A DNA stretch of 64,000 nt from a bacterium (GTDB taxonomy: Bacteria > Elusimicrobiota > Elusimicrobia > UBA1565 > UBA9628). The translations under genes and the position numbers were made by a program. The stretch covers positions 13,472 to 77,471 of the forward strand of contig JAJZAK010000007.1 of assembly GCA_021799485.1 (NCBI GenBank), given 5' to 3'. Positions 2,227 through 39,196 of this stretch are shown here, in pieces; positions within the stretch are counted from its first letter, which is position 1, and every line of letters starts with the position of its first letter. Under the pieces are notes generated by a model, which was not told the DNA's origin, did not search any database, and worked only from the letters and a program-made list of their open reading frames with translations.

Positions 2227-3087
2227 TTACGTCGGCAGCAGCTTGAGGGCGGCGCGGGCGACGGCGGGAACGAAGGCGGGGCGCAGGAGACGCTTGTCGT
2301 AGGGGGCGAGACGCTTTTCATTCTCCGAGAGGCAAAGTTCGACGAAGGCCCGCGGCGAGAAGTCGCCGAAGGACTTGTGGGCGTTCATCGTGAAATTATC
2401 CTGGGTGCCGGCGTTCTTTCCCACCTTGAGGGCGGTCTTCAAGCGGCTCACGGCCTGGAGCCACATCGCAAGGCCTCTGCGAAAGACGTAGCCTGGACGG
2501 CCGGCATAAGGGAGCTTCGCCTGATTGTAGGCGACCCAGTTGACGTGAAAGATGATATGCCGCCCCTCCTCCTGCATGATGGGCTCGAAAAGCGTCACGA
2601 GCTCCGGCGGGAAAAAACCGGAATCCCGAGCGAGCGCGAAGAGGCCGAAGGCGAAGAAGGAGTCGAAGCACTCCCCGTAGCCGATGCGCATGAAGGCCCA
2701 GTTGGGGTCTCGGGGCGCCGCGGGATTAAACGACGGCACGGGGATGCCGTATTTTTGGGTAAGAAGCTTCAAGATTCGGGCGTGGCGGGACTCCTCATAA
2801 CCCTGGAGCTTGATGGCATCGGAGAGGATCGGATCCTTTTCGGCCTCTCCCATCGTCGTCACCGCGAGCGCCGTCTCGGCCTCGGTCTTCACAGCCTCCT
2901 CCCAGATGGGGAGCGCCTTCAGCCGCTGCCGGGCATCGGAGCCGAGGTCCGGCCAGGAGAGCGTTTCGGGCTCATAAGGGTCGTGGGTCTCGACAAAGAA
3001 ACGGCAGAGGATCTCCTTATGTTTCGTGGAGCCGATGAAGCTGTCGGGGGCGCCGCCGGGCGCCTGGGGGTGCGTTGACGTTTTCAT
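2227..3087 (-). CDS. Ferritin-like di-iron carboxylate protein (oxygenase/desaturase-like)
   Basis: Two ExxH motifs are embedded in EESRH and EEGRH, each preceded by a helix with a conserved Glu (WEEAVKTEAE; GYGECFDSFF). This is the E / ExxH / E / ExxH ligand pattern of di-iron four-helix-bundle enzymes. The start was moved to ATG 3087 (MKTSTHPQ) because the 14 upstream codons of the track ORF are AT-rich and contain a promoter-like element. Confidence 0.7.
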   Translation of the reverse strand: MKTSTHPQAPGGAPDSFIGSTKHKEILCRFFVETHDPYEPETLSWPDLGSDARQRLKALPIWEEAVKTEAETALAVTTMGEAEKDPILSDAIKLQGYEESRHARILKLLTQKYGIPVPSFNPAAPRDPNWAFMRIGYGECFDSFFAFGLFALARDSGFFPPELVTLFEPIMQEEGRHIIFHVNWVAYNQAKLPYAGRPGYVFRRGLAMWLQAVSRLKTALKVGKNAGTQDNFTMNAHKSFGDFSPRAFVELCLSENEKRLAPYDKRLLRPAFVPAVARAALKLLPT

Positions 3088-3097
3088 AGGACGCGAC

Positions 3098-3125
3098 AAT
3101 ATAGTAAATTCAATGATAATGTCAA
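3098..3125 (-). promoter_or_regulatory. Sigma70-like promoter for the di-iron gene: TTGACA-N16-TATATT, only 10 nt from the ATG (near-leaderless)
   Basis: The minus strand reads ggTTGACAttatcattgaatttacTATATTgtcgcgtcctATG. The -35 box is at 3125-3120, the -10 box at 3103-3098 and the ATG at 3087. No SD is present. The call is from consensus matching only. Confidence 0.45.
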
Positions 3126-4102
3126 CCATGAATATGAACGGCGATTTTCACGGGAAAGGGCTCTGGGCCGTGATCCTGGGGGGTTCCTCGGGTTTTGGCC
3201 TTGCGACCGCCAAGCGCCTGGCTCGTGCGGGGCTCCATATCATGGTGGCCCACAAGGATAAGGAAGGCGTGGTCGAGACCCAGATCAAGCCCCATTTCGA
3301 GGCCATCCGGCAGACGGGCGTCAAGTTCGTCGCCCACAACGTGAATCTCTTCGACGACGATGACCGGGCCGGAGTCATGGAGTCCATTGAGGAGCAGGCC
3401 GGCCGCGGCAAGGTCCATCTCTTCCTCCACTCGATCGCGGCGGGGGCCTGCAAGCTCCTCGCGGAGCCCAAGGGGCCCGATTTCCGCGCGGACGCGATCA
3501 AAGGGCTTCAGGAAGCGCTGACTTTCGGAGGCGCCGCCGTGACCATTACGCAGCTCCGCGACGCCGTCAACAAGGCTTTCCATGAGAAGCGTTGCGACGC
3601 GCTCTACACCGTCGCCGACAGCAAGATCCCTTACAAAGACGATTTGCTCGAGGAAGAAGACGTCAGCCGCACGGTTTGGATGATGGGTTATGACTATCTC
3701 CTCTGGGGCCGGGAGCTTCTGGCGCGGGAGCTGCTGTCTCCCGAAGCCCGGCTCGTGGCCCTCACCTCCGAGGGCAACGAGATCGCATGGCGGGGCTATG
3801 CGGCCGTCTCCGCCGCCAAGTGCGCGCTCGAGGCCTCCTGTCGGGCGATGGCCCTTGAAATGGGGCCCTATGGGGTGAGGTCCTACATTGTCCAGGCGGG
3901 CATCACCGACACTCCCGCCGGCAACGCGATTCCGCATTTCGACCTCATGATGGCCCAAGCGCGGATGCGCAACCCCTTTCATCGGCTCACGACCCCGGAG
4001 GACGTGGCCGAGGCGATCTACGCCCTCTGCCTGCCGCCGCTCTCCTGGTCCAGCGGCTCCATCATCCGCGTCGACGGCGGCGAGGCGATCTCCGGACTCT
4101 AA
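3113..4102 (+). CDS. Enoyl-ACP/CoA reductase, FabV/TER-like SDR (short form)
   Basis: The glycine motif ILGGSSGFGLATAKRLA resembles FabV GASSGYGLA. HLFLHSIAAG resembles FabV LVVYSLASP. TVWMMGYDYLLWGRELL..IAWRGYAAVSAAKCALE resembles FabV TVTVMGGQDWELWINAL..YWDGALGKAK, with the Tyr/Lys pair retained. The protein ends with SGSIIRVDGGEAI. The start is ambiguous among ATGs at 3113, 3119, 3128 and 3134. I chose 3113 because it sits ~7 nt after a TATAGT box. Confidence 0.65.
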   Translation: MIMSTMNMNGDFHGKGLWAVILGGSSGFGLATAKRLARAGLHIMVAHKDKEGVVETQIKPHFEAIRQTGVKFVAHNVNLFDDDDRAGVMESIEEQAGRGKVHLFLHSIAAGACKLLAEPKGPDFRADAIKGLQEALTFGGAAVTITQLRDAVNKAFHEKRCDALYTVADSKIPYKDDLLEEEDVSRTVWMMGYDYLLWGRELLARELLSPEARLVALTSEGNEIAWRGYAAVSAAKCALEASCRAMALEMGPYGVRSYIVQAGITDTPAGNAIPHFDLMMAQARMRNPFHRLTTPEDVAEAIYALCLPPLSWSSGSIIRVDGGEAISGL

Positions 4103-4109
4103 ACCATTC

Positions 4110-5111
4110 ATGCTATCCATCCTCGGGATGGGCTGGCAGCTCCCCAAAAACGAGATATCGAACGATTTCCTCCACAAGGAAGTCGGGCTTGAACGCGGCA
4201 ATGACTGGGTGGACTCCAGGCTCGGCATCTATACGCGCTACTCGGTGCTTTCGAGGGAATACATCATCAAGACGAAGAACGCGAACCCCGTCCACGCCAT
4301 GATCCACGCGCGCTCCAACGGAGAGACTCCCGTCATCTTGGGCGTCCGGGCCGCCCGGCAAGCCTTGGACGAGGCGGGTGTCAAGCCCGAGAAGATCGGC
4401 TGGGTGATCGCGAACAACGACACTCCCTTCGAGACGATCCCCAGCACCGCGAGCTTGATCGCCAAGGCTCTGGGCGTCGGCTCCGGGCCTCATTGCGACA
4501 TGAACGCCGCCTGCTCGAGCTTCGCCCGCCACATGAAGGCGGTCGCGGACATCAAGGAGGAAAAGCTGCCGGAATTCGTTCTCTGCGTCCAGACGAGTTG
4601 CTACACGGTCCGCACCGACTATTCCCCCTCCTCGATCGACGGCTATATCTGGGGCGACGGCGCCTCGGCCGAGATCTTGTCCGCTCGGCATGAAGGCCCC
4701 CTCGCCATCGAGCCCATGATCTACGAAAGCGACCCTTCGGGGGCGGAGCAAATCATGATCGACTCGACGGGGCATTTCGTCCAGGACGGGGCGGCGGTGC
4801 GCGAGTTCTCTATCCGAAAGACCTGCGAGATGTTCGAGGAAATGGCCCAGAAGAAGGGACTCTACGCCGAGGACGTCTACACCGTGGCGCACCAGGCGAA
4901 CTTCGTGATGCAGAACTCCATCATCGGCCATCTGGGCCTGCCCGCTGAAAGGCATTTGCGCAACGTTCAGAGGCAGGGCAATATCGCCGCCGCCGGGGCG
5001 CCGTCCGTCATCGCCCAGAACAAAGGCCGATTTCACAAGGGCGACAAAATTCTCTACGCCGTTCTGGGTTCGGGGCTCGCCTGGGGCGGCGGCTGCATGG
5101 AGGCTCTCTGA
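4110..5111 (+). CDS. 3-oxoacyl-ACP synthase III (FabH-like KAS III)
   Basis: The Cys-His-Asn triad is in the expected contexts: MNAACSSFARH, VAHQANFVM and RQGNIAAAGAP. Length is 333 aa. Confidence 0.85.
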   Translation: MLSILGMGWQLPKNEISNDFLHKEVGLERGNDWVDSRLGIYTRYSVLSREYIIKTKNANPVHAMIHARSNGETPVILGVRAARQALDEAGVKPEKIGWVIANNDTPFETIPSTASLIAKALGVGSGPHCDMNAACSSFARHMKAVADIKEEKLPEFVLCVQTSCYTVRTDYSPSSIDGYIWGDGASAEILSARHEGPLAIEPMIYESDPSGAEQIMIDSTGHFVQDGAAVREFSIRKTCEMFEEMAQKKGLYAEDVYTVAHQANFVMQNSIIGHLGLPAERHLRNVQRQGNIAAAGAPSVIAQNKGRFHKGDKILYAVLGSGLAWGGGCMEAL

Positions 5112-5839
5112 TGGCGAAAGACGTCGCTGTCGTGACAGGCGCCTCGGGCGGCATCGGGAAGGCGATCGCCCGGATGATCCACGAGAAATCCAACGGCGAA
5201 CTTCAGATCTGTCTGCATTGCCGCGGCAACAAGTCCTCCGCCGAAGAACTTCAAAGGGAAATCCCGGGCTCCTTTGTCGTCCAGGCGGATCTCGCGACGA
5301 CGGAGGGCCGCCGCATGCTTTTGGAGGCGGCGGCTGGAAAGGGCCATCCTTTCGTTCTGGTCAACAATGCCGGCGTGGACAAGCCGCATGAGCCCGCGCT
5401 CATGATCCAGGAATCATCCTTCGACGAGATCCTGGGCGCCAACCTGAAGAGCGCCGCGTTTTTAATGCGGGATTTCGGCAAGGAGATGGCCGGCGCGGGA
5501 GCGGGCGTCATCGTCAACATGAGCTCGGTTTTGGCCGGCAAGGCCCTGATCGGGTCGGCCCTCTACCGGGCGAGCAAGGCGGCGATCGAGGCCTTGACGA
5601 AGCAGTTCGCCTTCGAGCTCGGCCCCAAGGGGGTGCGCGTCAACGCCGTGGCGCCGGGCTTCATTGAGACGCCCATGACGCGGGGAATCCCGCCGGAGAT
5701 GCGCGATAAGATTCGCTCGGAGACGGCCCTCGGCGCCTTCGGCGCCCCGGAGGCCGTCGCCCAGGCCGTCTGTCATTTGATTGAGAACGACTATATCAAC
5801 GGCGCCGTGCTGCCCGTCAACGGAGGCATGTCCCTGTAA
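5111..5839 (+). CDS. 3-oxoacyl-ACP reductase (FabG-like SDR)
   Basis: It has VVTGASGGIGKAIA (TGxxxGIG), NNAG, the YRASKAA (YxxxK) motif and a C-terminal NGAVLPVNGG. Its start overlaps the KAS III stop (TGATG at 5109-5113). Confidence 0.85.
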   Translation: MAKDVAVVTGASGGIGKAIARMIHEKSNGELQICLHCRGNKSSAEELQREIPGSFVVQADLATTEGRRMLLEAAAGKGHPFVLVNNAGVDKPHEPALMIQESSFDEILGANLKSAAFLMRDFGKEMAGAGAGVIVNMSSVLAGKALIGSALYRASKAAIEALTKQFAFELGPKGVRVNAVAPGFIETPMTRGIPPEMRDKIRSETALGAFGAPEAVAQAVCHLIENDYINGAVLPVNGGMSL

Positions 5840-6321
5840 TGGCCCTGACAGCGTCCGAAATCCTCAAGCTCGTTCCCCAGCAGCGCCCCATGCGCTTCAT
5901 CGACGCGATCGAGGAGGTCGATGACGAGCACATCACGGCGACCTACACGTGGAAAGACGAGGACTGCGCGGGGCACTTCCCGGGAAATCCCGTGGTCCCC
6001 GGCGTCAAATTGATCGAGATGGCGGCCCAGGTGGGCAACGTCGCCTGGGGCATCTACCATCTTTCCCTTGATCGTCCCGTCGAAGTTCTCTCCGGGCTTT
6101 TGGGCGTTTTCGCCGGGGTCGAGGAAGGAAGCTTCAAGCGCGTGGTGCGCCCTGGAGAGAAGGTCAGGGCCACGGCCTATTTCAACGACGAAGGATATTT
6201 TCGCAACAACAAAATCATGGCGTTGGTCGAGATCGCCTTCGCCGGCGGCGCCAAGGACGGAGAGATCGTTTTTACTGGAAAAACTTCGGGAATGTGGGTC
6301 CCTAAAGAGGAAGTGGAATGA
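5839..6321 (+). CDS. 3-hydroxyacyl-ACP dehydratase (FabZ/FabA-like hotdog fold)
   Basis: It has LVPQQRPMRFIDAI and the catalytic-His motif GHFPGNPVVPGVKLIEMAAQ. Length is 160 aa. The junction with the preceding gene is a TAATG overlap. Confidence 0.8.
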   Translation: MALTASEILKLVPQQRPMRFIDAIEEVDDEHITATYTWKDEDCAGHFPGNPVVPGVKLIEMAAQVGNVAWGIYHLSLDRPVEVLSGLLGVFAGVEEGSFKRVVRPGEKVRATAYFNDEGYFRNNKIMALVEIAFAGGAKDGEIVFTGKTSGMWVPKEEVE

Positions 6322-7637
6322 ATCGAAAAAGAGTCGTCGTCACCGGCCTGGGCGTGGTCGCCCCCAACGGCGTTGGCCTCGCCGCATTCCGGGAAGCCCT
6401 GAAAGCGGGCAAATCCGGCATCACGCAGCATGAAGAGTTGAAGCGCCTCAATTTCGCGGCGCAGATCGGCGGGACGCCGCCCGTCGGAGAGGAGGAGGCT
6501 CTTGCCGTTATCCCGGAAAGCGAGATCCATAAGCTCTCCGAGGCCATGATCTACGCGGTCATGGCATCCCTTGAGTGCGCGAAGTCCGCGGGACTTCCGG
6601 TTGACGTGGCGGCCGGCCTCAAGGACGGCGCCGTCGACTGGAACGCCGGGGCGGTGATCGGCTGCGGGATCGGCGGCATGGACACGATCTTCGAGCAGAT
6701 GGTCGCGGTCATTCGGGAGGCTCCGACGGCGGACGCGGGGCGCGGAATGGTGGACATGGGGACGAACATCGTTCCGCAGGTGATGGGATCGAGCGTCAGC
6801 GTCGCGGTGGGCCGCTTTCTGGGCGTGGGCGGACAGACCTCGACCAACAGTTCCGCATGCAACACCGGGACCGAGGCGATTTTCGAGGGCTATAAGCACC
6901 TGCAGTTGGGCTACGCGGACGCGATGTATGTCGGCGGAGCCGAAGGAAGCCACTACGCCATCTGGGCTGGGTTTGACGCCATGCGCGACGTGCTCTGCTC
7001 GCGCTACAACGACGCCCCCGAGAAAGGCTCCCAACCCTTGGGGGCCGGCGCCTGCGGCTTCGTTCCCAGCTCGGGGGCCGGAGTGCTGCGGATTGAGACA
7101 CTGGAATCCGCCCAAAAGCGCGGCGCCAAGATTCTCTGCGAGCTGGTCGCCGCCTATTGCAACTCGGGCGGCCAGCGCAACGGCGGGACGATGACCTTCC
7201 CCAATCAGGAGGGCGTCGTGCGCTGCATCCAGCGGGTTCTCCAAGACTCGGGGATCGATCCGGCGCGCATCTCCCTCATCAACGGCCACCTGACTTCGAC
7301 CACCGCCGACCCTCGGGAAGTCGAGAGCTGGCTGAAGGCCCTGGGGCTTGAGCCCGCGCATTTCCCGCTCATCCAGGCGACGAAGTCCATGATCGGACAT
7401 TCGCTCGGCGCCGCAGGGGCGATCGAGTCCATCGCCGTCGTCGACCAGATCGTCAACGGCTACGTCCATCCTTCGATCAACTGCGACGAGGTCCATCCCA
7501 ACATCCAGAAGCTGGGCGTGGCGAATTCGATCCCGCACCGGCTCCTTGAGCGCCGGCTTGATTATGTGATCAAGGCCTCCTTCGGCTTCGGCGATGTGAA
7601 CGGTTGCCTCTTGTTTAAGCGATGGGATGGTAGGTAA
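6318..7637 (+). CDS. Beta-ketoacyl-ACP synthase (KAS I/II, FabF/FabB-like)
   Basis: It has RVVVTGLGVVAPNG, the active-site Cys in NSSACNTGTEAI, and two His residues in INGHLTSTTADP and KSMIGHSLGAAGAIE. It has an ATGA overlap with the dehydratase gene. Confidence 0.85.
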   Translation: MNRKRVVVTGLGVVAPNGVGLAAFREALKAGKSGITQHEELKRLNFAAQIGGTPPVGEEEALAVIPESEIHKLSEAMIYAVMASLECAKSAGLPVDVAAGLKDGAVDWNAGAVIGCGIGGMDTIFEQMVAVIREAPTADAGRGMVDMGTNIVPQVMGSSVSVAVGRFLGVGGQTSTNSSACNTGTEAIFEGYKHLQLGYADAMYVGGAEGSHYAIWAGFDAMRDVLCSRYNDAPEKGSQPLGAGACGFVPSSGAGVLRIETLESAQKRGAKILCELVAAYCNSGGQRNGGTMTFPNQEGVVRCIQRVLQDSGIDPARISLINGHLTSTTADPREVESWLKALGLEPAHFPLIQATKSMIGHSLGAAGAIESIAVVDQIVNGYVHPSINCDEVHPNIQKLGVANSIPHRLLERRLDYVIKASFGFGDVNGCLLFKRWDGR

Positions 7638-7727
7638 AATATAAACTCTCGGCCTTCAGTTTTCGAAAGGCGAATGAAGATTTGTGAAGATGAACGCTGA
7701 TAAGAATTCTTAAGGAGGTTTCCCAAG

Positions 7728-8630
7728 ATGGCATTTAAGCGTCGCGAGGCTCCAACGGTCGAGGCAGTCGACCTGAACACGATTTCCCCCAAGGATGCGG
7801 AAACTCGCATCATCCAAGGGGTCAAGAAGTACGCCACTAACGAGGCCAACTGGTCCAAAGCCGACGCGAACACGCCTTTTTTGGGCTCGATCATCGGCAT
7901 GGGGATCGAATCGAGCAACCTCGCGGATGTGACGATGTCGATCGAGCGCCAGTTCCTCACCCGCAAGACGAACCGCGTTCCGGTCAACGGCGGCTCCGAG
8001 TTCAGGCTTGAGGATGGGGAGCTGGGGAAGCTGCGCATCCTCGACGGGCAGGACGCCACCGCCGCGACGCCGGGACTCTCGGTCAAGATGCTCATGGATT
8101 TAGGCCACATGCCCAAGGATGCCGGCTACCTGGCGGGCGTCGTGTCCTACGCCTATATCGTCGCGGTCGGCGACGGCTACCGCATGAACGACGGCCTCAA
8201 GAAGGCCATGGAGAAAGTGGGGCGCCTCTCAGGGGGCGAACGCGATGAGGCCCTCGCCAATCTCCGGGCCCTCGTCGTCAAGGCGCGCGAATACGTGGCC
8301 TTGCTGGGAGACGTTAAGGCCCTGGCCGAGAACCGCAGGAAGACATACGATAACGACAGGCAGACGGTCGACAATCTGCGCCAAGAGCTGTCCATGATCG
8401 GCGAAAAGCTCAAGGGGGCGACGGCGTCCGGGGATTCCGGCCAAGTCGCGGCGTTGCGCTCCGAGGAAACGAGCGTCCGCTCCCGCCTCAAGATGGGCGA
8501 GCAGCGCTATAAAATCTCGGAGCAAGTGGTCGCCGAGTCGGCCAGCCGCAAGGACGTCGAGGAAGCCAAGGTGCGCGAGATCTCGGCTCTCCTCTCGCGG
8601 ACGATCGCAGACGCCCAGCGCGTCGCCTAG
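7728..8630 (+). CDS. Hypothetical protein: putative atypical acyl-carrier-like N-terminal domain plus a ~170-aa coiled-coil/amphipathic C-terminal domain
   Basis: It has the only strong SD in the cluster (AAGGAGG at 7712-7718, 9 nt before the ATG) and follows a 90-nt AT-rich gap. Residues 59-76 (GIESSNLADVTMSIERQF) align with E. coli AcpP GADSLDTVELVMALEEEF, placing Ser62 on the phosphopantetheine Ser36. A helix-I-like AETRIIQGVKKYA lies ~35 residues upstream. The C-terminal region is rich in heptad-like charged repeats. The carrier assignment is inference. Confidence 0.6.
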   Translation: MAFKRREAPTVEAVDLNTISPKDAETRIIQGVKKYATNEANWSKADANTPFLGSIIGMGIESSNLADVTMSIERQFLTRKTNRVPVNGGSEFRLEDGELGKLRILDGQDATAATPGLSVKMLMDLGHMPKDAGYLAGVVSYAYIVAVGDGYRMNDGLKKAMEKVGRLSGGERDEALANLRALVVKAREYVALLGDVKALAENRRKTYDNDRQTVDNLRQELSMIGEKLKGATASGDSGQVAALRSEETSVRSRLKMGEQRYKISEQVVAESASRKDVEEAKVREISALLSRTIADAQRVA

Positions 8631-8646
8631 GCCGCGTAGCCTGTAA

Positions 8647-10044
8647 GTGCTCAGCGACGTCGATGTCCGGTCGCTCCGGTTGCAGGAAAGTCTGAGCGCC
8701 TGGGCCCGCTGGCCGATCTACCTATTTCTCTTCGTCTCGTTGCGATTCTATCACCGTTACCGCTTTGATGGCATCGAGGAGTTTCGGCGGTCCCTCTGGC
8801 AGAAACTCGACAAGCACCATGGCCCTATTATCTGGGCCGCTAACCATCTGACTCTCATCGACTCCTTTCTGATCTTCTGGGCCCTGGTTCCTCCGGGCCG
8901 AATATCCCGCACCAAGATCATCCCTTGGTCCACTCCCGAATATCGCAACTATTATCATCTGGGAGGCCCTATCTATAAGCGATTCATCCGGTTCCTGATG
9001 TACGCGTGCCGCTGCATCCCCTTCCTGCGCGGGGGCGACGACGAGGTTTCGGTTCAATGGCGCGAGAACGTCTACCAGAAATGCCGCTGGATACTGCTTA
9101 ACGGGGGCTCGGTTTTCATCTTCCCGGAAGCCGGCCGCTCGAAAAACGGCTGGTTCGACCCTCACCGCCCCAAGGATCTGCTGGGAAGGCTCGCTCAGGA
9201 GGTGCCCGGCGTCAAGTTTTTGTGCGTCTATCTCAGGGGCGAGGGGCAGATCCTGCGTTCCATTTACCCGCGCCAGGGCGAGCGATTCCGCATGGTCGGC
9301 GATCTCATCGACGGGATCGTCCCCGGCGAGACGAGTCCGCGCATGACGAGCCAAAGGCTTTTCAACCGCCTGGCCGAGCTTCAAAACGATTGGTTTGCCG
9401 GAAGCGGGCTCGCGAAGAACTGCGCGGGCAACGACGTCATCGATCTTGCCTCCCCCCACGCCAGGGACATTTTCCCGCCGGACGGCGACCCGGAGACGAT
9501 CGAGGAGGTCTTCTCGCGGCGGTTGACGGCAAAGGAAACGGCCTACCTCTCTGAATTTTCGGGGGAGGAGCGCTACCGGACTTTCTGGAAATTCATCGCC
9601 GCCAAGGAGGCCGCCATGAAAGCGCTCGCGCAAAGCGGCGTCATGTGCAATTTCAAGGATCTCGAAGCCGACCTGTTCCGTCGGCGCATCGTCCATCTTC
9701 CCACCGCCTGCGAAATGGATATCGCCCTGACGGTGGACGACCCCGAGAAAGTCCATGCGATCTGCGTCCTGCGCGGGGGTTACGTGGGCGACGACCAGCA
9801 CCCCGGGGATGTGCTTTGGGAAGTCCAGCAAGTCCCCGACGGCATTTCCCCCTCCGAGTTCGCCCGAGAGCGCTGCCTGGCCTTCATCGCGGCTTCCTCC
9901 GACGATATCCGCACGCCGGACGTCCTCGCGATGACCGACGACGGCGGCATTCCCAAGGTCCTTCGCAATGGACGCGTCTGCGATTGGGGCGTCTCCCTCT
10001 CGCATTCAGGGCGTTTCGCCGCGTATAGCTTCATGGTGTCATGA
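8647..10044 (+). CDS. Fusion protein: PlsC/LPLAT-type acyltransferase (N-terminal) plus 4'-phosphopantetheinyl transferase (C-terminal)
   Basis: The N-terminal half has acyltransferase motif I NHLTLID (H67-x4-D72) and motif III FIFPEAGRS (158-165). The C-terminal half has PPTase motifs GNDVIDL (261-267), FWKFIAAKEAAMKAL (WxxKEAxxK) and GVSLSHSGRFAAYSF. It starts with GTG and ends in an ATGA overlap with the next gene. Confidence 0.75.
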   Translation: MLSDVDVRSLRLQESLSAWARWPIYLFLFVSLRFYHRYRFDGIEEFRRSLWQKLDKHHGPIIWAANHLTLIDSFLIFWALVPPGRISRTKIIPWSTPEYRNYYHLGGPIYKRFIRFLMYACRCIPFLRGGDDEVSVQWRENVYQKCRWILLNGGSVFIFPEAGRSKNGWFDPHRPKDLLGRLAQEVPGVKFLCVYLRGEGQILRSIYPRQGERFRMVGDLIDGIVPGETSPRMTSQRLFNRLAELQNDWFAGSGLAKNCAGNDVIDLASPHARDIFPPDGDPETIEEVFSRRLTAKETAYLSEFSGEERYRTFWKFIAAKEAAMKALAQSGVMCNFKDLEADLFRRRIVHLPTACEMDIALTVDDPEKVHAICVLRGGYVGDDQHPGDVLWEVQQVPDGISPSEFARERCLAFIAASSDDIRTPDVLAMTDDGGIPKVLRNGRVCDWGVSLSHSGRFAAYSFMVS

Positions 10045-11006
10045 GCAAGCCCATGGGCGTCTGCGTCCTTTTCGCCGGCCAGTCGGTTCAGGAAAGCGGC
10101 ATGTGCCGCGAGCTCTGGGCATATCCCGCCGCGCGCGATATTTTAAAACGCCTGGCGCCGTCTCTCGGGGAGGACCTCGAACGGATCACGACCGAGATGC
10201 CTGATCCGGAGCTGGCGCTCACCTTCAACGCCCAGCGGGCGATTCACGCCCATCACCTGGGGCACTGGTTCGCCTTGAGGGCCGCCCATCCCGAGATCGT
10301 CCTCGAGGGAGCGCTGGGACACTCGATGGGGATCGTCGCGGCTCTCGTCGCCGCCGGGGCGATGTCCGTGGAGGATTCGGGGATCTTCATCCGCGCGCGA
10401 GCCCAGGCTTTTTCCGACGTTTGCAAGGGCTTTTCGGAGCCGATGGGCCTTGCCGCGATCTCGGCTGAGTTCTTCGAGGATGTCTCCGCGAGGCTTTCGG
10501 AGTTTCCGGGAGTGTCCATGGCCCTTCATAACACGATCGGCCGCGGTGTCGCCGGCGGGACTTTGCGCGCGATCGAAGATTTCGCCAGGAGGGCCCAGGA
10601 AGATGGATGGGAGGCGAAAATCAAGCTCCTGAAGGTCGAGGGCCCCTACCACACATCGGCCTTCGCCCCGGCTCGCGCCCCTCTGCGCAAGGCCCTGGAC
10701 CGAATCGAAATTCGAAAGCCTCAAGTCCCCGTGTTCATGGGAACATCCGGGAAGCTTGAAGAGGACCCCGGGCGCATTCGCGAGCTTCTCGTTGCTCAGG
10801 CGGATTCTCCGGAGCTCTACTTCCAGGCCGTCTGGGAGGCCTATGATCACGGCATGAGACGCTTTCTGGAGGCCGCCTACAAGCCCCAGCCAGTGACCTG
10901 GATGGGGGAGCAGCTTCTTGATGAGGATGGAAAGCTGATGCCCGGGGTCGTGCCGATCGCCATCAAGACATCGGATCTCGGAGCGGCGCTCTCCGTCGGG
11001 GCGTAA
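10041..11006 (+). CDS. ACP S-malonyltransferase (FabD-like)
   Basis: It has VLFAGQSVQ (FAGQGSQ-like), the nucleophile elbow GHSMGIVAAL, a conserved Arg in FIRARAQAF, and KVEGPYHTSAF (the xVSxxFH-like His). Confidence 0.8.
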   Translation: MSKPMGVCVLFAGQSVQESGMCRELWAYPAARDILKRLAPSLGEDLERITTEMPDPELALTFNAQRAIHAHHLGHWFALRAAHPEIVLEGALGHSMGIVAALVAAGAMSVEDSGIFIRARAQAFSDVCKGFSEPMGLAAISAEFFEDVSARLSEFPGVSMALHNTIGRGVAGGTLRAIEDFARRAQEDGWEAKIKLLKVEGPYHTSAFAPARAPLRKALDRIEIRKPQVPVFMGTSGKLEEDPGRIRELLVAQADSPELYFQAVWEAYDHGMRRFLEAAYKPQPVTWMGEQLLDEDGKLMPGVVPIAIKTSDLGAALSVGA

Positions 11007-11007: not shown

Positions 11008-11634
11008 TCAGGGCAAGACGGACGTTCTCTCGGCGCACTTGTTGCAGCGTCCGCACGGGCGGCCCCGCACGGGGGCTAAGCAGGAGAACGCGAGTCCCAG
11101 CCACGAGGGCATCGGGAATCGACGAAGAATCTCCCTCTTGGAAAGAGTTCGATAAGGCGCCAAGACCTTGAAGGGCATGCCGAATGCCGATGCGATGGCG
11201 TGCTCCATGGATCTCAAGAACGCCGGTCGGGCGTCCGGAAAGGGGTTTCCTTTTAGGATGCCGATGGCGGCCGCGGGGATGCTCCGCGCGGCGCAATAAA
11301 GTCCTGCTTGCGCCAAAAGAACAAGGTTGCGTCCCGGCAGGAAGACGCTGGAAGCCGCGCTGCGCCGTCCGGGGACCGCCTTGCCAGAGAGGCTCCAGTG
11401 CCTCTTTCCTAAAAATCCGGAAACGGCCGCCCGGGATACCTCAAGCGGGCGCAAGCGCGGATGGGCGGCGGCTTTCAACATCCGGCGCAAGCGGCGCAGT
11501 TCGGCCGCCTCCCAACGGAGCCCGCAGCGCACATAGAGCGGATGAACCGCAAAGCCCAGTCGAAGGAAATCCGCCGTCAAAACGGCGCTGTCGACGCCGC
11601 CGCTGGCTAGAACGCAAACCGTTCGGACTTTAAT
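11008..11634 (-). CDS. queC: QueC-like PP-loop ATPase (7-cyano-7-deazaguanine synthase family), probable non-canonical ATT start
   Basis: The track ORF (TTG at 11580) lacks the P-loop. The same frame continues upstream as IKVRTVCVLASGGVDSAVL, which carries the SGGxDS motif, with no ATG/GTG/TTG before it. Other family features are FLPGRNLVLL, NPFPDARPAF and the C-terminal Zn cluster C..CGRCNKCAER. The ATT at 11634-11632 overlaps the TAA of the upstream gene (cATTAAa). Confidence 0.6.
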   Translation of the reverse strand: MKVRTVCVLASGGVDSAVLTADFLRLGFAVHPLYVRCGLRWEAAELRRLRRMLKAAAHPRLRPLEVSRAAVSGFLGKRHWSLSGKAVPGRRSAASSVFLPGRNLVLLAQAGLYCAARSIPAAAIGILKGNPFPDARPAFLRSMEHAIASAFGMPFKVLAPYRTLSKREILRRFPMPSWLGLAFSCLAPVRGRPCGRCNKCAERTSVLP

Positions 11635-12553
11635 GTGTGTGCCGGGAAACGAGCTTCCTGAGGCGCTCGACCAAGGCCTTATGGGCCAAATTTTCCTCGG
11701 GAATTTCCTCGGCCCCCGCTTCCGCTTGGGAAGGACCCGGGGCCGCTGGCTTGGGGGAGCGCGGCGGCTCGGGAGCGGGCTTGGCCGCGGCCTCCTCCTG
11801 CTGTCTCGATGAATCTTTCGGGAATCGAGAGGCGGCTCCCATCTGCGGCAAATCCTCCTCGAGCTTGCGGATGATGCCCAGGGATTTCGCGAGTTGGAGC
11901 TCCTTTTCCGTAAGCTCCAGGCTCAGCTTGTTGACGAGGCGATTGCGAATCGCGAGATCGTTTTGGGCGTCGCCGAGGCGCTTATGGAGGCTCTCCTGCT
12001 CGGCCCGCAGTTTCTCAAAGGCGACGCGCAGGGCCGCCGTCTGTTGTCCTTCCCTGGCGGCAGAGGCCTCCAAGGCCTGCGCGCGATCCTTTTCCTGAGA
12101 CAGGCTCTTCTCGAGATCCGCTATGCGGCCTTTCTCGGACTTTAAATGGGCGTCCTTTTCGATGAGACGCGCGTCCGACTCCTCGACGCGGCTTTTGAGA
12201 TTCATGATCTCAAGCTCGAGGCGGCGCAGGAGCTCCTGCTCTTCTCGCCTGTTTTCCAGCTCCTTGACGATGCGGGAGACGTGCTGAAAAAGCTTGGTGC
12301 CCGTGGCATCGATGAAGGCATTGACGTCGGTGGAGGCGGAGGATGCCGGCTTGGCGGAATTTTGCTCGTGGTCCGTGGCTCCCGCGGCCTTCAGGATCTC
12401 CGGAATTTCCGATGCCCGCCGCCAGTTCTTTTCGGCGATCTCCCCCTCGGCCGGACAGACGAGGATCGAAAGAGCGAAATCGGGCAGCCGGACAAGATCC
12501 TCCGGGGAATAGCATCCGGGAACTTCTCCGCGCAGATAGGCCCAGTATTTCAT
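11630..12553 (-). CDS. GYF_2 (DUF4339)-like N-terminal domain plus long coiled-coil protein, hypothetical
   Basis: The N-terminus is MKYWAYLRGEVPGCYSPEDLVRLPDF..NWRRASEIPEI (W-Y..G...GP-like GYF_2 pattern). The central ~170 aa are heptad-rich (LELEIMNLKSRVEESDARLIEKDAHLK...). The tail is Pro/Ala-rich. The SD is AGGAG, 6 nt before the ATG. Confidence 0.6.
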   Translation of the reverse strand: MKYWAYLRGEVPGCYSPEDLVRLPDFALSILVCPAEGEIAEKNWRRASEIPEILKAAGATDHEQNSAKPASSASTDVNAFIDATGTKLFQHVSRIVKELENRREEQELLRRLELEIMNLKSRVEESDARLIEKDAHLKSEKGRIADLEKSLSQEKDRAQALEASAAREGQQTAALRVAFEKLRAEQESLHKRLGDAQNDLAIRNRLVNKLSLELTEKELQLAKSLGIIRKLEEDLPQMGAASRFPKDSSRQQEEAAAKPAPEPPRSPKPAAPGPSQAEAGAEEIPEENLAHKALVERLRKLVSRHTH

Positions 12554-12612
12554 GGTTGTCTCCTAGAAGATAATCAAGGATAGGAAGAGGCCGTTACAAA
12601 TTCAAGTCGCAA

Positions 12613-13965
12613 TTATTTGGCGCGCGGCGGCATGGCGAGGTTCTTGAGATAGACTTCAAGGGCCTTCGCATCGCAGCGCTTTGCGAGGCAGAAGCGGGCT
12701 CTCGCCTGGTTGTCCCAGAAAGCGGGATAATCCGAAAGGACGCGTTCATAATCCGCGCTGGCGAGCTTGCGCAGCCCCAGAATGCTCTCGGCGTAGCCGC
12801 GATAGAGATAGAGGGTTGAAAGCCATGCCTGATGCTCCCTTGGCCCCCAGCCGGGCTTGCGGGCCGCAACTTTCAGGGACTCTTCCTCGCTGATCGCCTG
12901 GCGCAGCCAGCCCAGAGAGAGTTCCGTCTGATCGCGGTCGGGGCAGGATTTCGGGGCGAAGGCGCAAAGAAGAGTCAGAAGCTTCGGCTGCGACGTCTTT
13001 TCGTCCCGGGAGAAAGGAGCGAAAAACTCGCGGGCTTCATGGAAGGAGCCCGTAGAATCCTTCGTTTCGTAGAGCATCACGGATTCAAGGAACTGGAAAT
13101 AGGGGCTCTGGGGGTAGGAACGGCGAAGGACCCGGAGCATCTCGAGGGCTTTGGGAAAATCATGCTTATCCTCGATATAAATCGAGGCCAGGATGATTTG
13201 GGCCTGCTTCGAAACATAGACGGCGTGCTGGGCCGCGGTGTTGAGCAGATCGAGTCCCTTGGCCTCGTCTCCCTTGACGTCCAGAAGATGCCGGCTCAGA
13301 AAGCCCAGGAGGCCCGAGTAGCGCGAGACGTCGTATTCGAACCAGCCGAGGCCCAGCTTCGCGTCATCGTAGTCGGGATCGATATCGAGGCATTGGTGCA
13401 AATGGGCCACCGCCTTCTTGCCGGCGAAATAAGCCTTGAGCCAATGCCGTTCAAGGAGCTCCCACTGGCCGCGGGCGCCGAGAGCCATGCCGACGATAAA
13501 ATGGCCGTCGGTCTGCTCGCGAGGATCGTTGGATTCAAGAAGCGGCTTGGAGTGGGCGATGGCTTGACGGACGTCCTCCTCGAAGCGTTTGCGCAGGTCG
13601 GCGCGCCTTTTAAAAAGCCCCGCTTCGTTGGAGGCTTCCCACCAGAGGGCGCCCGCCTCGAAAAGATAGCTGAACGCCTTGTCGGGCTCGTTGCGGACGA
13701 GCATCTCAAAGGTCGCCCGGGACTGCGCGTAATCAAGGTCGTAGAGATCCTTGAAGCCTTGTTCGGAGAGTCCCAGGGCGACGGCGTCCATGCCGTAGGG
13801 GTTGGCGTTCGCATCAGGGCAAAAGAAGGCCGCGGAAGGACACAGAAAGACGCAGAAGGCCGCAAAACGCAGAAGGCCGCGGAAGGCCGCGAGGGGCCGG
13901 GAACGGCAAGAGATGCCTTTCCCAGCGGGGCCCCGTCGTTTTCCCTTGTCACTTCCAAAGCGCAT
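12613..13965 (-). CDS. Secreted all-helical TPR-like repeat protein, hypothetical
   Basis: It has a hydrophobic signal-like segment (LLRFAAFCVFLCPSAAFFCPDANA) followed by repetitive helical, Tyr/Leu/Ala-rich sequence. The start was set at the internal ATG 13965 (MRFGSDKGK) to limit overlap with the LOG gene, and is uncertain. Confidence 0.55.
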   Translation of the reverse strand: MRFGSDKGKRRGPAGKGISCRSRPLAAFRGLLRFAAFCVFLCPSAAFFCPDANANPYGMDAVALGLSEQGFKDLYDLDYAQSRATFEMLVRNEPDKAFSYLFEAGALWWEASNEAGLFKRRADLRKRFEEDVRQAIAHSKPLLESNDPREQTDGHFIVGMALGARGQWELLERHWLKAYFAGKKAVAHLHQCLDIDPDYDDAKLGLGWFEYDVSRYSGLLGFLSRHLLDVKGDEAKGLDLLNTAAQHAVYVSKQAQIILASIYIEDKHDFPKALEMLRVLRRSYPQSPYFQFLESVMLYETKDSTGSFHEAREFFAPFSRDEKTSQPKLLTLLCAFAPKSCPDRDQTELSLGWLRQAISEEESLKVAARKPGWGPREHQAWLSTLYLYRGYAESILGLRKLASADYERVLSDYPAFWDNQARARFCLAKRCDAKALEVYLKNLAMPPRAK

Positions 13966-14836
13966 AGCGATGCTCCTTCCAAAAATCCTGGATGTATTCC
14001 CAGCCATCCTCGGCCCTCTCGACGACTTTGAAAAGCCGGCGATCCTCCGGAGTGATCATGTCCTGATCGAGCAGATAGTCGAAATTCACCGCCTTCGACC
14101 AGAATTCCGTTCCGAAGAGGACGATGGGGATGGGGCGCTTCTTTCCGGTCTGTACCAGAGTGAGCGTCTCGAACAGCTCATCGAAAGTGCCGTATCCTCC
14201 CGGAAAGGCGACGAGCGCCCTCGCGCGCATGAGGAAGTGCATTTTGCGCAGAGAGAAATAATGGAAGCGAAAGGTGATCTCCGGGGTGATATAGGGATTG
14301 GGGTCCGGCTCGTGGGGAAGGGTGATCGCGAAGCCCACGCTTTTGGCGCCGCTCTCGAAGGCCCCGCGGTTGGCGGCTTCCATGGCGCCCGGCCCCCCGC
14401 CTGTCGCGATGACGAACTCAAGCTGGCGGTTGGGCGGCTGGTTCCGGGCGGCCAAGGCCGCGAAACGCCGCGCCTCCTCGTAGTATTTCGAGAGATTGAG
14501 GGCGCGCCGAGCCCGGCGAAGGGCTTTGCGCCCCTCGGGCGTTTCCGGCCGGGAGCCGAAGTCCTCGAGGACGGCGTTTAATTCTTCACGGGCCTTGGCG
14601 CGGGAGCGCAGTCGAGCGGAGCCGAAGACGACGATCGTCGAACGGATGCGGTGCTCGCGCAGGATGAGTTCGGGCTTGAGGAGCTCGAGCTGGAGCCTCA
14701 CGGGGCGAAGATCTTTTTTCTTGAGGAACTCCAGGTCCTCGTGGGCCATGACGTAGCCGTGGGCTTCCTTGATCCGGTCGATGAGAGCCTGTCGCTGCTG
14801 CGGCGAGAGCTCGTTTTTTAATAGGGAGTTCTTCAT
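13949..14836 (-). CDS. LOG family protein (TIGR00730-type, nucleotide 5'-monophosphate nucleosidase-like)
   Basis: It has TIVVFGSARL, ATGGGPGAMEAANRGA and the PGGYGTFDELFE motif. The start was set at ATG 14836, which forms an ATGA overlap with the dctM stop. Confidence 0.8.
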   Translation of the reverse strand: MKNSLLKNELSPQQRQALIDRIKEAHGYVMAHEDLEFLKKKDLRPVRLQLELLKPELILREHRIRSTIVVFGSARLRSRAKAREELNAVLEDFGSRPETPEGRKALRRARRALNLSKYYEEARRFAALAARNQPPNRQLEFVIATGGGPGAMEAANRGAFESGAKSVGFAITLPHEPDPNPYITPEITFRFHYFSLRKMHFLMRARALVAFPGGYGTFDELFETLTLVQTGKKRPIPIVLFGTEFWSKAVNFDYLLDQDMITPEDRRLFKVVERAEDGWEYIQDFWKEHRYALWK

Positions 14837-16101
14837 AAGTGAAAGAGCCGAGGCAGCCACAGGCTCAGGGCCGGAGTGTAGCTCACGACGGCAAGGAGGG
14901 AGATGAGGATGAGCCAGAAGGGAAGGCTCGCGCGGTAGAGCGTCGGCAAGGACAGGTCGAAGCGCCGGCTTGAGAGAAACAGATTCAGGCCCATGGGAGG
15001 GGTCAAATATCCGATTTCAAGATTGAGAAGGAAAAGGACCCCCAGGTGGATGGGATCGATGCCATAGTGCATCGCCACCGGCACGATGATCGGCACCATG
15101 AGGACGATCGCGGAGAAAATTTCCACCATGTTGACGAGCAATAGAAAGGCGTTGAGAAGAGCCAAAAACAAAATCTTCCCCGAGACGTGCGCGTTGAGGA
15201 AGGAAAAGAGCTTCGCGGGAGCTTGGGCGTCGATGAAATAGCTCGTCAGTCCTATCGCGCAACCCAGGACAAGAAGGATCGCCCCGACGAGCATCTGGCT
15301 TTTGAGGGCGATCGACGGGAGCGCGGAGAGCTTGATGTCTTTGTAAATGAGGACCTCGGCGACGAGAGAGTAGAAGGCCATGACGGCGGCGGCCTCGGCG
15401 GCCGTGAACTTGCCCATGTAAATCCCTCCGATCGCCAGGATAGGCATGGGGATCTCCCAGATAGAGCGCCGGAAGGCCGAACGGAGCGCGCTCCAAGAGA
15501 AAGAAGTCGCCTTGACGTCGTGTCGCGCGGAGATCCAGACGGCGTAGGCCGAAAGCGCGGCGATGAGGAGAAGAGCGGGAAGAAGAGCCGCGGCGAAAAG
15601 CCTTTCAAGGGAGACCTGAGCCACGAGGGCGTAAAGGATGATGGGCAGCGATGGAGGGAGCAGGAGGCCCAGGCTGCCGCTTGTCGTGACGAGGCCGAGG
15701 GCGAAGTCCTTGGGATAGGCCTTTTGAAGGAGAAGGGGATAGACGATGCCTCCCAGGGCGATAATCGTGACGCCCGAGGCTCCGGTGAAAGCCGTGAAAA
15801 GGGAGCAGGAAGCAAGCGCCGCGATGGCGATCCCTCCGGGGATCCAGCCGAAGGCCGCCTCGGCAAGCTCCAGGGTCCGCTGGGGCGCCTTGCTTTCGGC
15901 TAGGAGATAGCCCGCGAACGTGAACAGCGGGATCGCCGTCAGGGATGGCATGTCGGTCAGCCTTGTAAGCTCGATCGTGACGGCGGAAAGCGGCACTTGC
16001 TCCAAGTGAAAAAGAAGGAGGGCAAGCCCGCCGAGTATCGCGTAGATCGGAATCCCGGCCGCCGCCGCGACGGCCGTGCCGGCGATGAGGGCCGAGGTCA
16101 C
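14833..16101 (-). CDS. dctM: TRAP transporter large permease subunit
   Basis: 422-aa polytopic membrane protein with typical DctM composition. It has a GTGA overlap with the small permease gene. Confidence 0.85.
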   Translation of the reverse strand: MTSALIAGTAVAAAAGIPIYAILGGLALLLFHLEQVPLSAVTIELTRLTDMPSLTAIPLFTFAGYLLAESKAPQRTLELAEAAFGWIPGGIAIAALASCSLFTAFTGASGVTIIALGGIVYPLLLQKAYPKDFALGLVTTSGSLGLLLPPSLPIILYALVAQVSLERLFAAALLPALLLIAALSAYAVWISARHDVKATSFSWSALRSAFRRSIWEIPMPILAIGGIYMGKFTAAEAAAVMAFYSLVAEVLIYKDIKLSALPSIALKSQMLVGAILLVLGCAIGLTSYFIDAQAPAKLFSFLNAHVSGKILFLALLNAFLLLVNMVEIFSAIVLMVPIIVPVAMHYGIDPIHLGVLFLLNLEIGYLTPPMGLNLFLSSRRFDLSLPTLYRASLPFWLILISLLAVVSYTPALSLWLPRLFHL

Positions 16102-16628
16102 GTCTTGGTGTCGCTGGAAGGCGCCATGCGGCTTTGCCGCCCGCCAAGTTCGAGGGACTCCTCGACGGCGCGCAGCAGCGTGTGGAGGCCAACAAGCGAG
16201 AATCCGACGGGGATCACGGCGGCGAAGGTCCAGCGGGGGATGCGCAGGTTCCCAAACCCCACGAGCATTCCTCCCGAGGCGCGCTCATCCTGGAGGAATT
16301 CCCAGGCGGCGTAGGCTAGGAAGCCGCACGCGACGCAGGCGGCGATGGAGGCCGCCGCATCAAGGGACTTGCGCAGCGTGCCTTCGGGGATATGAAGGGC
16401 CTCAAAGGCGAAGTGCTTGCCCTCGGCCGCGGAGACGGCCGCGCCCAAAAAGCCGATCCAGAGCACCATATGCCGCATCAGGATATCGGCGCCCACCATG
16501 CCCACCCCGAAAAGATCGCGTAGGAGAACTCCTCCGAAGGAGAGGAGGACGAGACTGAGAAGCAGGAAAAAAAGAACCGCCGTCTCGATGGACTTAAGAA
16601 TTCCTTGGGTCCGGGAAACGGCGTTCAT
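16098..16628 (-). CDS. dctQ: TRAP transporter small permease subunit
   Basis: 176-aa protein with four hydrophobic segments, positioned between DctP and DctM. Both junctions are 4-nt overlaps. Confidence 0.8.
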   Translation of the reverse strand: MNAVSRTQGILKSIETAVLFFLLLSLVLLSFGGVLLRDLFGVGMVGADILMRHMVLWIGFLGAAVSAAEGKHFAFEALHIPEGTLRKSLDAAASIAACVACGFLAYAAWEFLQDERASGGMLVGFGNLRIPRWTFAAVIPVGFSLVGLHTLLRAVEESLELGGRQSRMAPSSDTKT

Positions 16629-39193: not shown

Positions 39194-39196
39194 AAG

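Follow-up and report, generated by a model that had tools for sequence, protein, structure and literature searches.

We analyzed a 64,000-nt stretch of DNA (the window) from contig JAJZAK010000007.1 of an Elusimicrobia genome (assembly GCA_021799485.1, positions 13,472 to 77,471), and found that the open reading frame (ORF) at positions 8647-10044 of the window encodes a genuine two-domain protein. It joins an acyltransferase of the PlsC/lysophospholipid acyltransferase (LPLAT) type to a phosphopantetheinyl transferase (PPTase) in one polypeptide, hereafter called the fusion. Few components of lipid and polyketide biochemistry have been studied as thoroughly as PPTases, acyl carrier proteins (ACPs), and LPLATs. 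In all type II systems that we know of, the carrier is a small canonical ACP, and the PPTase is as a rule a protein of its own. The fusion lies in an operon resembling those of type II fatty acid synthesis (FAS), next to a gene for an orphan protein of 300 aa that we call X300. On balance, we think it probable that in a clade of free-living Elusimicrobia the fusion acts as a bifunctional enzyme within a conserved type-II-FAS-like lipid module that is self-contained, where the PPTase domain would activate X300 and the LPLAT domain would unload the acyl chain to a membrane lipid. Domain identity, motif conservation, predicted fold, synteny, and distribution were established directly in this analysis.

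An acyltransferase and a phosphopantetheinyl transferase in one polypeptide

The ORF has 465 codons on the + strand, a GTG start, and no internal stop. Its parts are listed here with the evidence used to assign them, including secondary structure from AlphaFold2 (AF2).

8647..9408, + strand: LPLAT/PlsC-type domain, residues 1-254 (PF01553, invariant motifs, AF2 secondary structure, Foldseek matches to 1iuq and 7zkq_T)
9412..9780, + strand: PPTase lobe 1, residues 256-378 (PF01648, hhalign to AcpS, Foldseek match to 1f7l)
9781..10044, + strand: PPTase lobe 2, residues 379-465 and the stop codon (AF2 secondary structure, hhalign to Sfp, invariant motif)

A first-pass annotation of the window had described a 465-aa ORF with complete motif sets for both activities. 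This observation was correct and its interpretation largely reasonable. All the motifs that it quoted are present at exactly the positions it gave: NHLTLID (H67, D72) and FIFPEAGRS (157-165) in the acyltransferase, and GNDVIDL (261-267), FWKFIAAKEAAMKAL (313-327), and GVSLSHSGRFAAYSF (448-462) in the PPTase. The two Pfam models that it had named for verification score above Pfam's own gathering cut-offs: PF01553 (Acyltransferase) gives 35.2 bits at residues 48-189 (cut-off 23, E = 1.3e-8) and PF01648 (ACPS) gives 28.1 bits at residues 284-345 (cut-off 25, E = 2.2e-6). The NCBIfam model of the PPTase domain, TIGR00556, remains below threshold (21.2 vs. 45.35).

The catalytic residues of both domains are invariant in an alignment of 38 homologues. 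In the acyltransferase these positions include N66, H67, D72, F126 and R128 (in IPFLR), and P160-E161-A162-x-R164; in the PPTase they include G261-N262-D263, D266, K320-E321, K325, and S452-H453. W314 of the PPTase is invariant or nearly so across the same homologues and the stand-alone forms described below. When the family alignment was given as input, AF2 modeled the whole fusion with a pLDDT of 90.9 and a pTM of 0.87, and the two domains are therefore predicted to hold a defined mutual arrangement.

The acyltransferase domain starts with long helices (residues 4-35 and 43-54 in the AF2 model), as in membrane-associated PlsC. Its structural matches in the PDB, obtained with Foldseek, are squash glycerol-3-phosphate acyltransferase (GPAT) 1iuq (E = 2.2e-3) and chain T of the complex-I assembly intermediate 7zkq (E = 1.2e-3), which we take to be tafazzin, while a search of PDB sequences with the family profile gave no match for this half at E<=1. 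Following the block definitions in general use for LPLATs (I-IV), blocks I (HX4D) and III are present, the latter reading PEAGRS instead of PEGTRS, and IPFLR with its invariant F126 and R128 fits the FxxR of block II. The domain shares with the PlsC/GPAT/LPLAT family (PF01553; squash GPAT 1IUQ, tafazzin) blocks I and III, the N-terminal helices, and the fold, along with this FxxR-like segment, but it is very divergent, shows no clear proline-rich block IV, and has a PPTase attached at its C-terminus. A PlsC-type domain joined to a second lipid-pathway domain is also found in OlsF, a bifunctional ornithine-lipid acyltransferase, whose partner domain is a GNAT-type N-acyltransferase and not a PPTase.

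The fusion is real and widespread among Elusimicrobia

A protein search with the fusion retrieved 178 relatives. The best 120 of these are all 438-497 aa long, with 50-62% identity and 94-100% query coverage; nearly all have both Pfam domains, and they come almost only from metagenome-assembled genomes of Elusimicrobia/Elusimicrobiota. Across many studies, over 170 protein clusters contain the fusion without interruption, and some relatives have already been named [quoted passage not shown] by JGI's pipeline. In the literature that we searched, we found nothing on the LPLAT-PPTase fusion, on fatty acid synthesis in Elusimicrobia, or on X300. The phylogenetic range, which the first-pass annotation had left to a survey, was examined by scanning one genome per GTDB species. 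Full-length fusions were found at 64 loci, with 46-91% identity and an intact ORF of 465-470 aa, and all but a handful of these loci carry an Elusimicrobia label. The labels "Acidobacteriota" and "Endomicrobium" on some of the others look like binning or labelling noise. For instance, contigs JAKOVQ010000017.1 (L010, "Acidobacteriota bacterium") and CALRXP010000189.1 (L018, "Candidatus Endomicrobium trichonymphae") have the fusion with the full operon, and are probably mis-binned or mislabelled Elusimicrobia contigs.

One might suspect that such a long ORF is an artefact, either a chimera of the assembly or two genes merged by a missed stop or a frameshift, as the first-pass annotation had itself cautioned. 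Two loci from low-coverage assemblies (~3.8x), L068 and L069, could be cited for this, since there the reading frame changes between the two domains and only the PPTase part was called as a gene. The suspicion is contradicted by the recurrence of the intact ORF, seen in 64 species-level genomes and over 170 protein clusters, and by the confident AF2 model of a single chain (pTM 0.87). Independent assemblies of the same population give the same answer. The population of the window occurs in mine-drainage and sediment metagenomes, and in an independent run one 41.5-kb contig spans positions 7700-11000 with a single-nucleotide polymorphism, C9449A (A268D), as the only difference. In two further runs, single contigs span positions 7700-9950, and hence the domain junction, without indels. 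The artefact, to which we would give next to no weight in general, is refuted for this locus, and in this organism the ORF cannot conceal a stop or a frameshift.

Two observations on these data deserve mention. The substitution at 9449, which falls right after the GNDVIDL strand, is fixed in the contigs of three other runs from the same population, at a position that varies in the family. The frame splits at L068 (3663-5055) and L069 (3607-4999) may be sequencing errors or a real fission of the fusion.

A two-lobed phosphopantetheinyl transferase

The PPTase domain has 210 aa; the first-pass annotation had put it at ~200 aa and noted that it is longer than AcpS. The annotation's proposal that the additional length was inserted after the KEA helix and ahead of the SxSH motif did not hold as well: the models make it more likely that a complete AcpS-like fold is followed by an extra C-terminal lobe, which bears SLSHSGR. 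The core of lobe 1 (residues 259-376) has 118 residues, the size of a whole AcpS, and consists in the AF2 model of strand beta1 (GNDVID), several helices, the long KEA helix among them, and four strands. It contains the motifs GNDVxD (D263, D266) and WxxxAAKEAxxK (E321, K325). Its last strands read RFTDDDxDKLHCVAVL, i.e., lobe 1 has an RFTDDD-type sequence in place of an SxSH of its own. Lobe 2 (residues 380-465) is modeled as a strand-helix-four-strand alpha/beta lobe with a GxP and the invariant SLSHSGRFAA.

The comparisons with known structures agree with this description. The best Foldseek match of the C-terminal part is Bacillus subtilis AcpS (1f7l, E = 2.7e-4, TM 0.77 on the target), followed by others such as 2cg5 (human AASDHPPT), 4mrt (Sfp), 5cxd, and 3hyk, and hhalign aligns lobe 1 to the AcpS of Escherichia coli and B. 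subtilis with a probability of 81-86%. AcpS is aligned in one contiguous stretch (128 columns including gaps) and not in two pieces 90 residues apart, which is why we prefer an added lobe over an insertion. In lobe 2, hhalign pairs LSHSGRFAAYSF with residues 88-99 of Sfp, ISHSGRWVICAF, in the N-terminal half of that protein. Only about half of Sfp or AASDHPPT can be superposed (TM 0.36-0.37 on the target, 117-138 columns), which is consistent with a reversed order of the motif-bearing halves. No similarity between lobes 1 and 2 was detectable by hhalign; their secondary structure and motifs suggest that they may have arisen by an internal duplication.

This layout fits neither of the two common PPTase groups. 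AcpS (group I) is a stand-alone protein of about 120 aa that forms homotrimers with active sites between the subunits. Lobe 1 resembles it (B. subtilis AcpS, PDB 1F7L) in length, fold, and the succession GxD...WxxKEAxxK, but it has lost its own SxSH, its SLSHSGR is supplied by a second lobe, and it sits behind an acyltransferase. Sfp-type enzymes (group II; Sfp, human AASDHPPT) are, like the domain studied here, two-lobed units of ~200-230 residues, with an SHSGR (ISHSGRW) in the N-terminal half of Sfp and the GxD/KE motifs in the C-terminal half. In the fusion the motif-bearing halves come in the opposite order, with GxD/KEA at 261-325 and SLSHSG at 450-455. The C-terminal PPTase of the fungal FAS alpha subunit (group III; 2WAS/2WAT), which is among the weak sequence matches of the fusion family profile, likewise shares a polypeptide with other activities of the pathway for which it activates the carrier. 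That polypeptide belongs to a type I megasynthase with its own ACP, whereas the partner here is a single LPLAT, the system is a dissociated type II, and the carrier gene is separate. We found no description of such a reversed (permuted) PPTase layout in the literature searched.

The operon and its conserved core

The genes between 3026 and 11006 are all on the + strand, with ends that overlap or nearly abut. They encode an enoyl reductase (ER), two ketoacyl synthases (KASIII and KAS), a ketoacyl reductase (KR), a dehydratase (DH), X300, the fusion, and a malonyl-CoA:carrier transacylase (MCAT), in the order ER-KASIII-KR-DH-KAS-X300-fusion-MCAT. The features other than the fusion are given below, with the score and cut-off of NCBIfam models where available.

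3026..4102, + strand: enoyl-reductase-like short-chain dehydrogenase/reductase, similar to FabL/FabI/FabV (Pfam adh_short_C2 and Enoyl_reductase; NCBIfam FabL/FabI far below their equivalog cut-offs; upstream in most loci)
4110..5111, + strand: KASIII, FabH-like priming ketosynthase (PF08541/PF08545; TIGR00747 121.7 vs. 292; syntenic)
5111..5839, + strand: FabG-like 3-ketoacyl reductase (adh_short_C2, E = 5.6e-47; TIGR01830 173 vs. 298; syntenic)
5839..6321, + strand: 3-hydroxyacyl dehydratase of the hot-dog type, FabZ/FabA-like (PF07977; FabZ model 62 vs. 113)
6318..7637, + strand: KAS, FabF/FabB-like elongating ketosynthase (PF00109, PF02801; TIGR03150 270 vs. 494)
7728..8630, + strand: X300, putative non-canonical carrier of 300 aa (no Pfam or NCBIfam match; adjoins the PPTase gene upstream; AF2 pLDDT 85.6)
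7911..7913, + strand: codon of X300 Ser62, candidate phosphopantetheine site in GMGIES(62)SNLADVTMSIERQF (invariant; PS00012-type pattern; register of ACP profile and hhalign alignments)
10041..11006, + strand: MCAT, FabD-like (PF00698, E = 1e-20; TIGR00128 99 vs. 261)

The six FAS enzymes of the operon reach only ~40-60% of the NCBIfam equivalog cut-offs. From their sequences they appear to be diverged paralogues and not typical housekeeping copies, and such low scores are as expected if they co-diverged with a different carrier. The KAS is 31% identical to E. coli FabF and keeps the Cys-His-His triad (ACNTG, NGHLTST, and IGHSLG align to the catalytic residues), while the Ser of GHSMG, the Arg, and the His of the MCAT align to S92, R117, and H201 of E. 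coli FabD. The ATG of the MCAT gene overlaps the stop of the fusion gene (ATGA), so that the two are likely to be translationally coupled. The true start of the ER gene is probably ~90-110 nt downstream of the one called, because its 5' end overlaps a divergent gene (2227-3129). A homologue of the DH in locus L001 (CP096137.1, a complete genome) also matches ApeI/ApeP-like families, and the ER of this locus (4554-5521) is called as two ORFs of 181 and 141 aa, which may reflect a frameshift or a genuine split. A scan for promoters and terminators returned nothing informative inside the operon, and metatranscriptomes from the study that produced the window gave no coverage of it that could be used.

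To what extent is this arrangement conserved? X300 is directly upstream of the fusion in every one of the 64 loci where there is sufficient upstream sequence, as the first-pass annotation had noted for the window, and this is the tightest linkage of the locus. The ER-KASIII-KR-DH-KAS block precedes X300 and the fusion in ~45 of 64 loci, and in ~45 the MCAT gene comes next after the fusion or at most a few kb further downstream. When the genes of the 64 loci were clustered in families, the downstream QueC was the only one to recur besides the eight genes of the operon; there was no recurrent thioesterase, exporter, or glycosyltransferase among them. In L001, a class I/II aminotransferase (alpha-oxoamine synthases belong to the same family) and a Ser/Thr kinase-TPR protein lie between the fusion and the FabD-like gene (12532-13779), and do not recur elsewhere.

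Some loci depart from this organization in an informative way. In a lower-GC subclade (L046, L047, L049, L051, L052), only X300, the fusion, and the MCAT are kept together, between Pal/CpoB/TolB genes and a class A penicillin-binding protein. A search with the PPTase half alone also revealed stand-alone proteins of 194-204 aa with 30-39% identity (P0250-P0254). Only these are truly stand-alone; other apparent cases (P0241-P0249) were rejected as contig-edge fragments or frameshifted low-coverage calls of the fusion. Locus L067 has an X300 homologue (53% identical) followed after 5 nt by such a PPTase and then by the MCAT, and L066 has the whole cluster, ER...KAS-X300-PPTase-MCAT, with no acyltransferase domain within 10 kb. 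Several frame breaks affect the KAS, X300, and MCAT genes of L066 (7944-11541 of a 119-kb contig), which looks like an error-prone assembly; its gene content remains informative. This type of cluster, with a stand-alone PPTase of 194 aa, belongs to a sister lineage, and fused and stand-alone PPTases have the catalytic residues and the SLSHSGRFAA strand in common (stand-alone forms at 33-42% identity). From the arrangements in the lower-GC subclade, L066, and L067 we conclude that X300, the PPTase, and the malonyl transferase form the evolutionary core of the system, and that a single branch added the LPLAT domain to its PPTase.

A search of the 64-kb window for canonical ACP, AcpS, and Sfp came back empty, and so did one for a canonical ACP within 10 kb in 65 related loci (~1.3 Mb in total), a result that concerns these loci and not the genomes as a whole. 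The first-pass annotation had proposed a dedicated carrier, insulated from the housekeeping ACP. The absence of a canonical ACP from the loci strengthens the first part of this proposal, a dedicated carrier, and so does the linkage of X300, PPTase, and MCAT, which persists where the other FAS genes are elsewhere and where the PPTase is not fused.

X300, an orphan protein and candidate carrier

The most interesting point of the locus is the orphan beside the fusion, rather than the fusion itself. The X300 gene is preceded by a strong Shine-Dalgarno sequence (AAGGAGG, at ~7706-7712), and its family is almost entirely labelled as Elusimicrobia. The AF2 model has a head of ~135 residues, the most conserved part of the protein, and a C-terminal helical bundle (141-299). 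The head comprises a helix (21-33), a loop, Ser62, a second helix (65-75), a beta-hairpin (76-101) that is missing in some members, and a further helix (115-124).

The first-pass annotation had called X300 the putative carrier, and several results fit this role. X300 is the one invariant neighbour of a PPTase and a malonyl transferase, enzymes for which we know of no substrates other than carrier proteins, and this points to a carrier function. Ser62 is invariant in 36 aligned members and in the distant ones, the most divergent member reading GMDIPSADI, and is surrounded by an invariant stretch, GMGIES62[S/A]NLADxTMSIERQFLT. When the six-frame translation of the window (99,220 residues) was scanned with a PS00012-type pattern, the Ser62 stretch was the only match, for 0.1 expected, and 31 of the 36 members match the pattern. 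A crude hidden Markov model of four ACPs, run on the window and the 65 loci, had X300 ORFs as its recurring top matches; their E-values of 2-10 are insignificant, and they place the serine of the DSL motif on Ser62 with helices I-II in register. With members lacking the hairpin as reference, hhalign scores of X300 against the alignment of four ACPs are 22-24 over 42-55 columns (best 23.6). Column-shuffled controls gave 11.5 +/- 2.2 (200 shuffles, maximum 21.3) and other protein segments gave 9-15. The register holds through the DSL/helix II region (GIES...ERQF with GADS...EEEF), an "EF...IxD" segment (LRIxDGQD with EIPDEEA), and a "T(P/V)..." helix IV (ATPGLxVKM with TTVQAAIDY).

Other results weigh against this role: X300 failed every standard test of membership in the ACP family. 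The Pfam model PF00550 did not match 16 + 4 N-terminal sequences of the family even at E<=10. An exhaustive HMMER search of 1.84 billion representatives with the X300 profile found 30 clusters, all of them members or fragments of its own family and none an ACP, and so by sequence there appears to be no bridge from X300 to known families. A profile search of PDB sequences found no ACP either, and Foldseek returned only generic helical bundles at E > 0.05. The probability that hhalign assigns to the X300-ACP alignment is just 11-14%. A clean four-helix bundle as in ACPs is not seen in the AF2 model, and the Ser62 loop (53-63) has a pLDDT below 50. The similarity to ACPs is thus weak, albeit above controls. 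Taking the conserved neighbourhood and the Ser62 motif together with these results, we lean slightly towards X300 being the carrier. We also considered whether it belongs to the alpha-pore-forming toxins, BAR, or PspA proteins, and rejected this: the Foldseek matches have E > 0.05 and TM 0.2-0.3, and the hairpin is hydrophilic and absent in some members.

Proposed pathway and alternative readings

If the fusion serves a pathway built on X300, its steps can be laid out as follows, where the substrates, the identity of the carrier, and the direction of acyl flow are those that we infer. With four residues in lobe 1 (D263, D266, E321, and K325) and the SLSHSGR strand in lobe 2, the PPTase would bind coenzyme A (CoA) and Mg2+ and transfer 4'-phosphopantetheine to the module's own carrier, most probably to Ser62 of X300, whose head would be a very divergent ACP-like domain with a beta-hairpin insertion (apo to holo form). 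The co-translated FabD-like enzyme would then load malonyl on holo-X300, and KASIII, KAS, KR, DH, and ER would extend a (largely saturated) acyl chain on it. Finally, with H67 and D72 as its catalytic dyad, the LPLAT, held at the membrane by its N-terminal helices, might transfer the completed chain from its thioester on the carrier to a hydroxyl group of the acceptor, a glycerolipid that is probably phosphorylated. The fusion would thereby unite both carrier-docking activities, activation and unloading, in one membrane-bound protein encoded next to the carrier gene.

Both domains could be active and yet serve a canonical AcpP encoded elsewhere in the genome. The fusion would then be the clade's housekeeping AcpS joined to a PlsC-like enzyme, or a second set that works on ordinary ACP, and X300 would be an accessory, e.g., a membrane-associated or scaffolding helical bundle that organizes the enzymes. 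That X300 cannot be recognized as a member of the ACP family favours this reading, and the best, though weak, likeness of its fold is to bundles of the BAR, PspA, and alpha-pore-forming-toxin type, with a Vps5/BAR model as its only, sub-threshold, Pfam match. The cluster also lies among housekeeping genes and looks vertically inherited. Against it, the linkage of X300, PPTase, and MCAT is invariant even without the other FAS genes or the acyltransferase domain, and neither PPTases nor MCATs are known to act on anything but carriers. A phosphopantetheine-site-like motif with an invariant serine, unique in the window, a similarity to ACPs that is in register and above controls, and the strong divergence of all operon enzymes from the housekeeping equivalogs also argue for a carrier of the operon's own. 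We regard service to an external AcpP as the main rival reading, though a rather unlikely one.

The C-terminal domain might instead be a non-catalytic derivative of a PPTase, which docks the holo-carrier or binds CoA or acyl-CoA on behalf of the acyltransferase, with activation left to another PPTase. Its Pfam score is barely over the cut-off and its NCBIfam score below it, and an AcpS-like fold with an extra lobe and a lost SxSH in lobe 1 is an unusual architecture. However, the residues needed for catalysis (the GxD, the second acidic residue, the Glu and Lys of the KEA motif, and SLSHSGR) do not vary between the fused and the stand-alone proteins, which are 33-62% identical, and the stand-alone form of 194 aa occurs in the same cluster where there is no acyltransferase to feed. 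Such a loss of catalysis seems to us quite improbable, and we retain a catalytic PPTase acting on the module's own carrier as the preferred interpretation.

The remainder of the window

Outside the operon, the 64-kb window is ordinary, with genes for TolC-like and QueC proteins, a TRAP transporter, methylenetetrahydrofolate reductase (MTHFR), glycosyltransferases, MurJ, two-component systems, and a Bat/MoxR operon, and it contains no further lipid-synthesis genes. The gene divergent from the operon (2227-3129, - strand) encodes a 300-aa protein with two ExxH motifs (EESRH and EEGRH), typical of ferritin-like di-iron oxygenases and desaturases, and no Pfam or NCBIfam match. We considered it as a desaturase of the pathway and dropped it: its only homologue is in the closest relative (L002), which places it outside the conserved module. 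Further features are:

11008-11580, - strand: QueC-like ORF covering only the C-terminal 60% of the QueC profile, either truncated or with a mis-set start
11630-12553, - strand: coiled-coil protein of 307 aa with weak SMC/Rad50-like matches and no Pfam domain, present in the closest relative only
14833-18524, - strand: complete TRAP-type transporter operon (DctM, DctQ, DctP, and the TAtT T-component), then MTHFR and an aldo/keto reductase
38165-45019, + strand: MoxR AAA ATPase, then large BatA/VWA/DUF4159 and GATase1-like proteins, i.e., a Bat-type "aerotolerance" operon

Comparison with known systems and significance

The nearest known logic for such a cluster is that of the aryl-polyene (APE) systems, and the nearest concept of a PPTase integrated in its pathway is the C-terminal domain of fungal FAS. 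Like the Elusimicrobia operon, APE clusters are FAS-like and of type II, with their own carriers (the dedicated ACPs ApeE/F) and an LPLAT, ApeD, which according to a published proposal hands the product over from the carrier pathway to an anchor lipid in the membrane (PMC8253772). The ApeI/ApeP-like matches of the DH homologue are a further point of likeness. APE clusters differ in having two small ACPs of the canonical kind, ketosynthase/chain-length-factor pairs, an adenylating enzyme, a thioesterase, a glycosyltransferase, and Lol/RND export, and in lacking an enoyl reductase and a PPTase. The Elusimicrobia operon has an ER and none of the APE-specific extra genes recurs in the 64 loci, so that it cannot be classified as an APE type II cluster.

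The operon is found throughout the clade and is unusual in three respects: the two-lobe PPTase layout for which we found no description, the joining of this PPTase to an acyltransferase, and a 300-aa orphan as the only candidate carrier. The fullest version of our proposal is that X300 represents a new ACP family of 300 residues, with a diverged ACP-like head (a hairpin after helix II, and ES in place of DS) and a helical-bundle tail. Its Ser62 would be modified by a new PPTase architecture, an AcpS-like fold with a C-terminal SHSG lobe, the reverse of Sfp, and most of the clade has this PPTase in one chain with the acyltransferase, which would unload the carrier. Carrier, PPTase, and acyltransferase would then make up a complete line from carrier to membrane lipid, one that is confined to free-living Elusimicrobia and escapes the domain databases of today. 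For this proposal as a whole we see the case as evenly balanced.

Even if X300 is not a carrier, the fusion is a clean domain architecture without earlier description. If it is one, the range of carrier proteins widens, and genome mining based on PF00550 would be shown to miss some pathways. It would also provide an orthogonal carrier/PPTase pair for engineering, as well as a first entry point to the membrane lipids that uncultured Elusimicrobia make.

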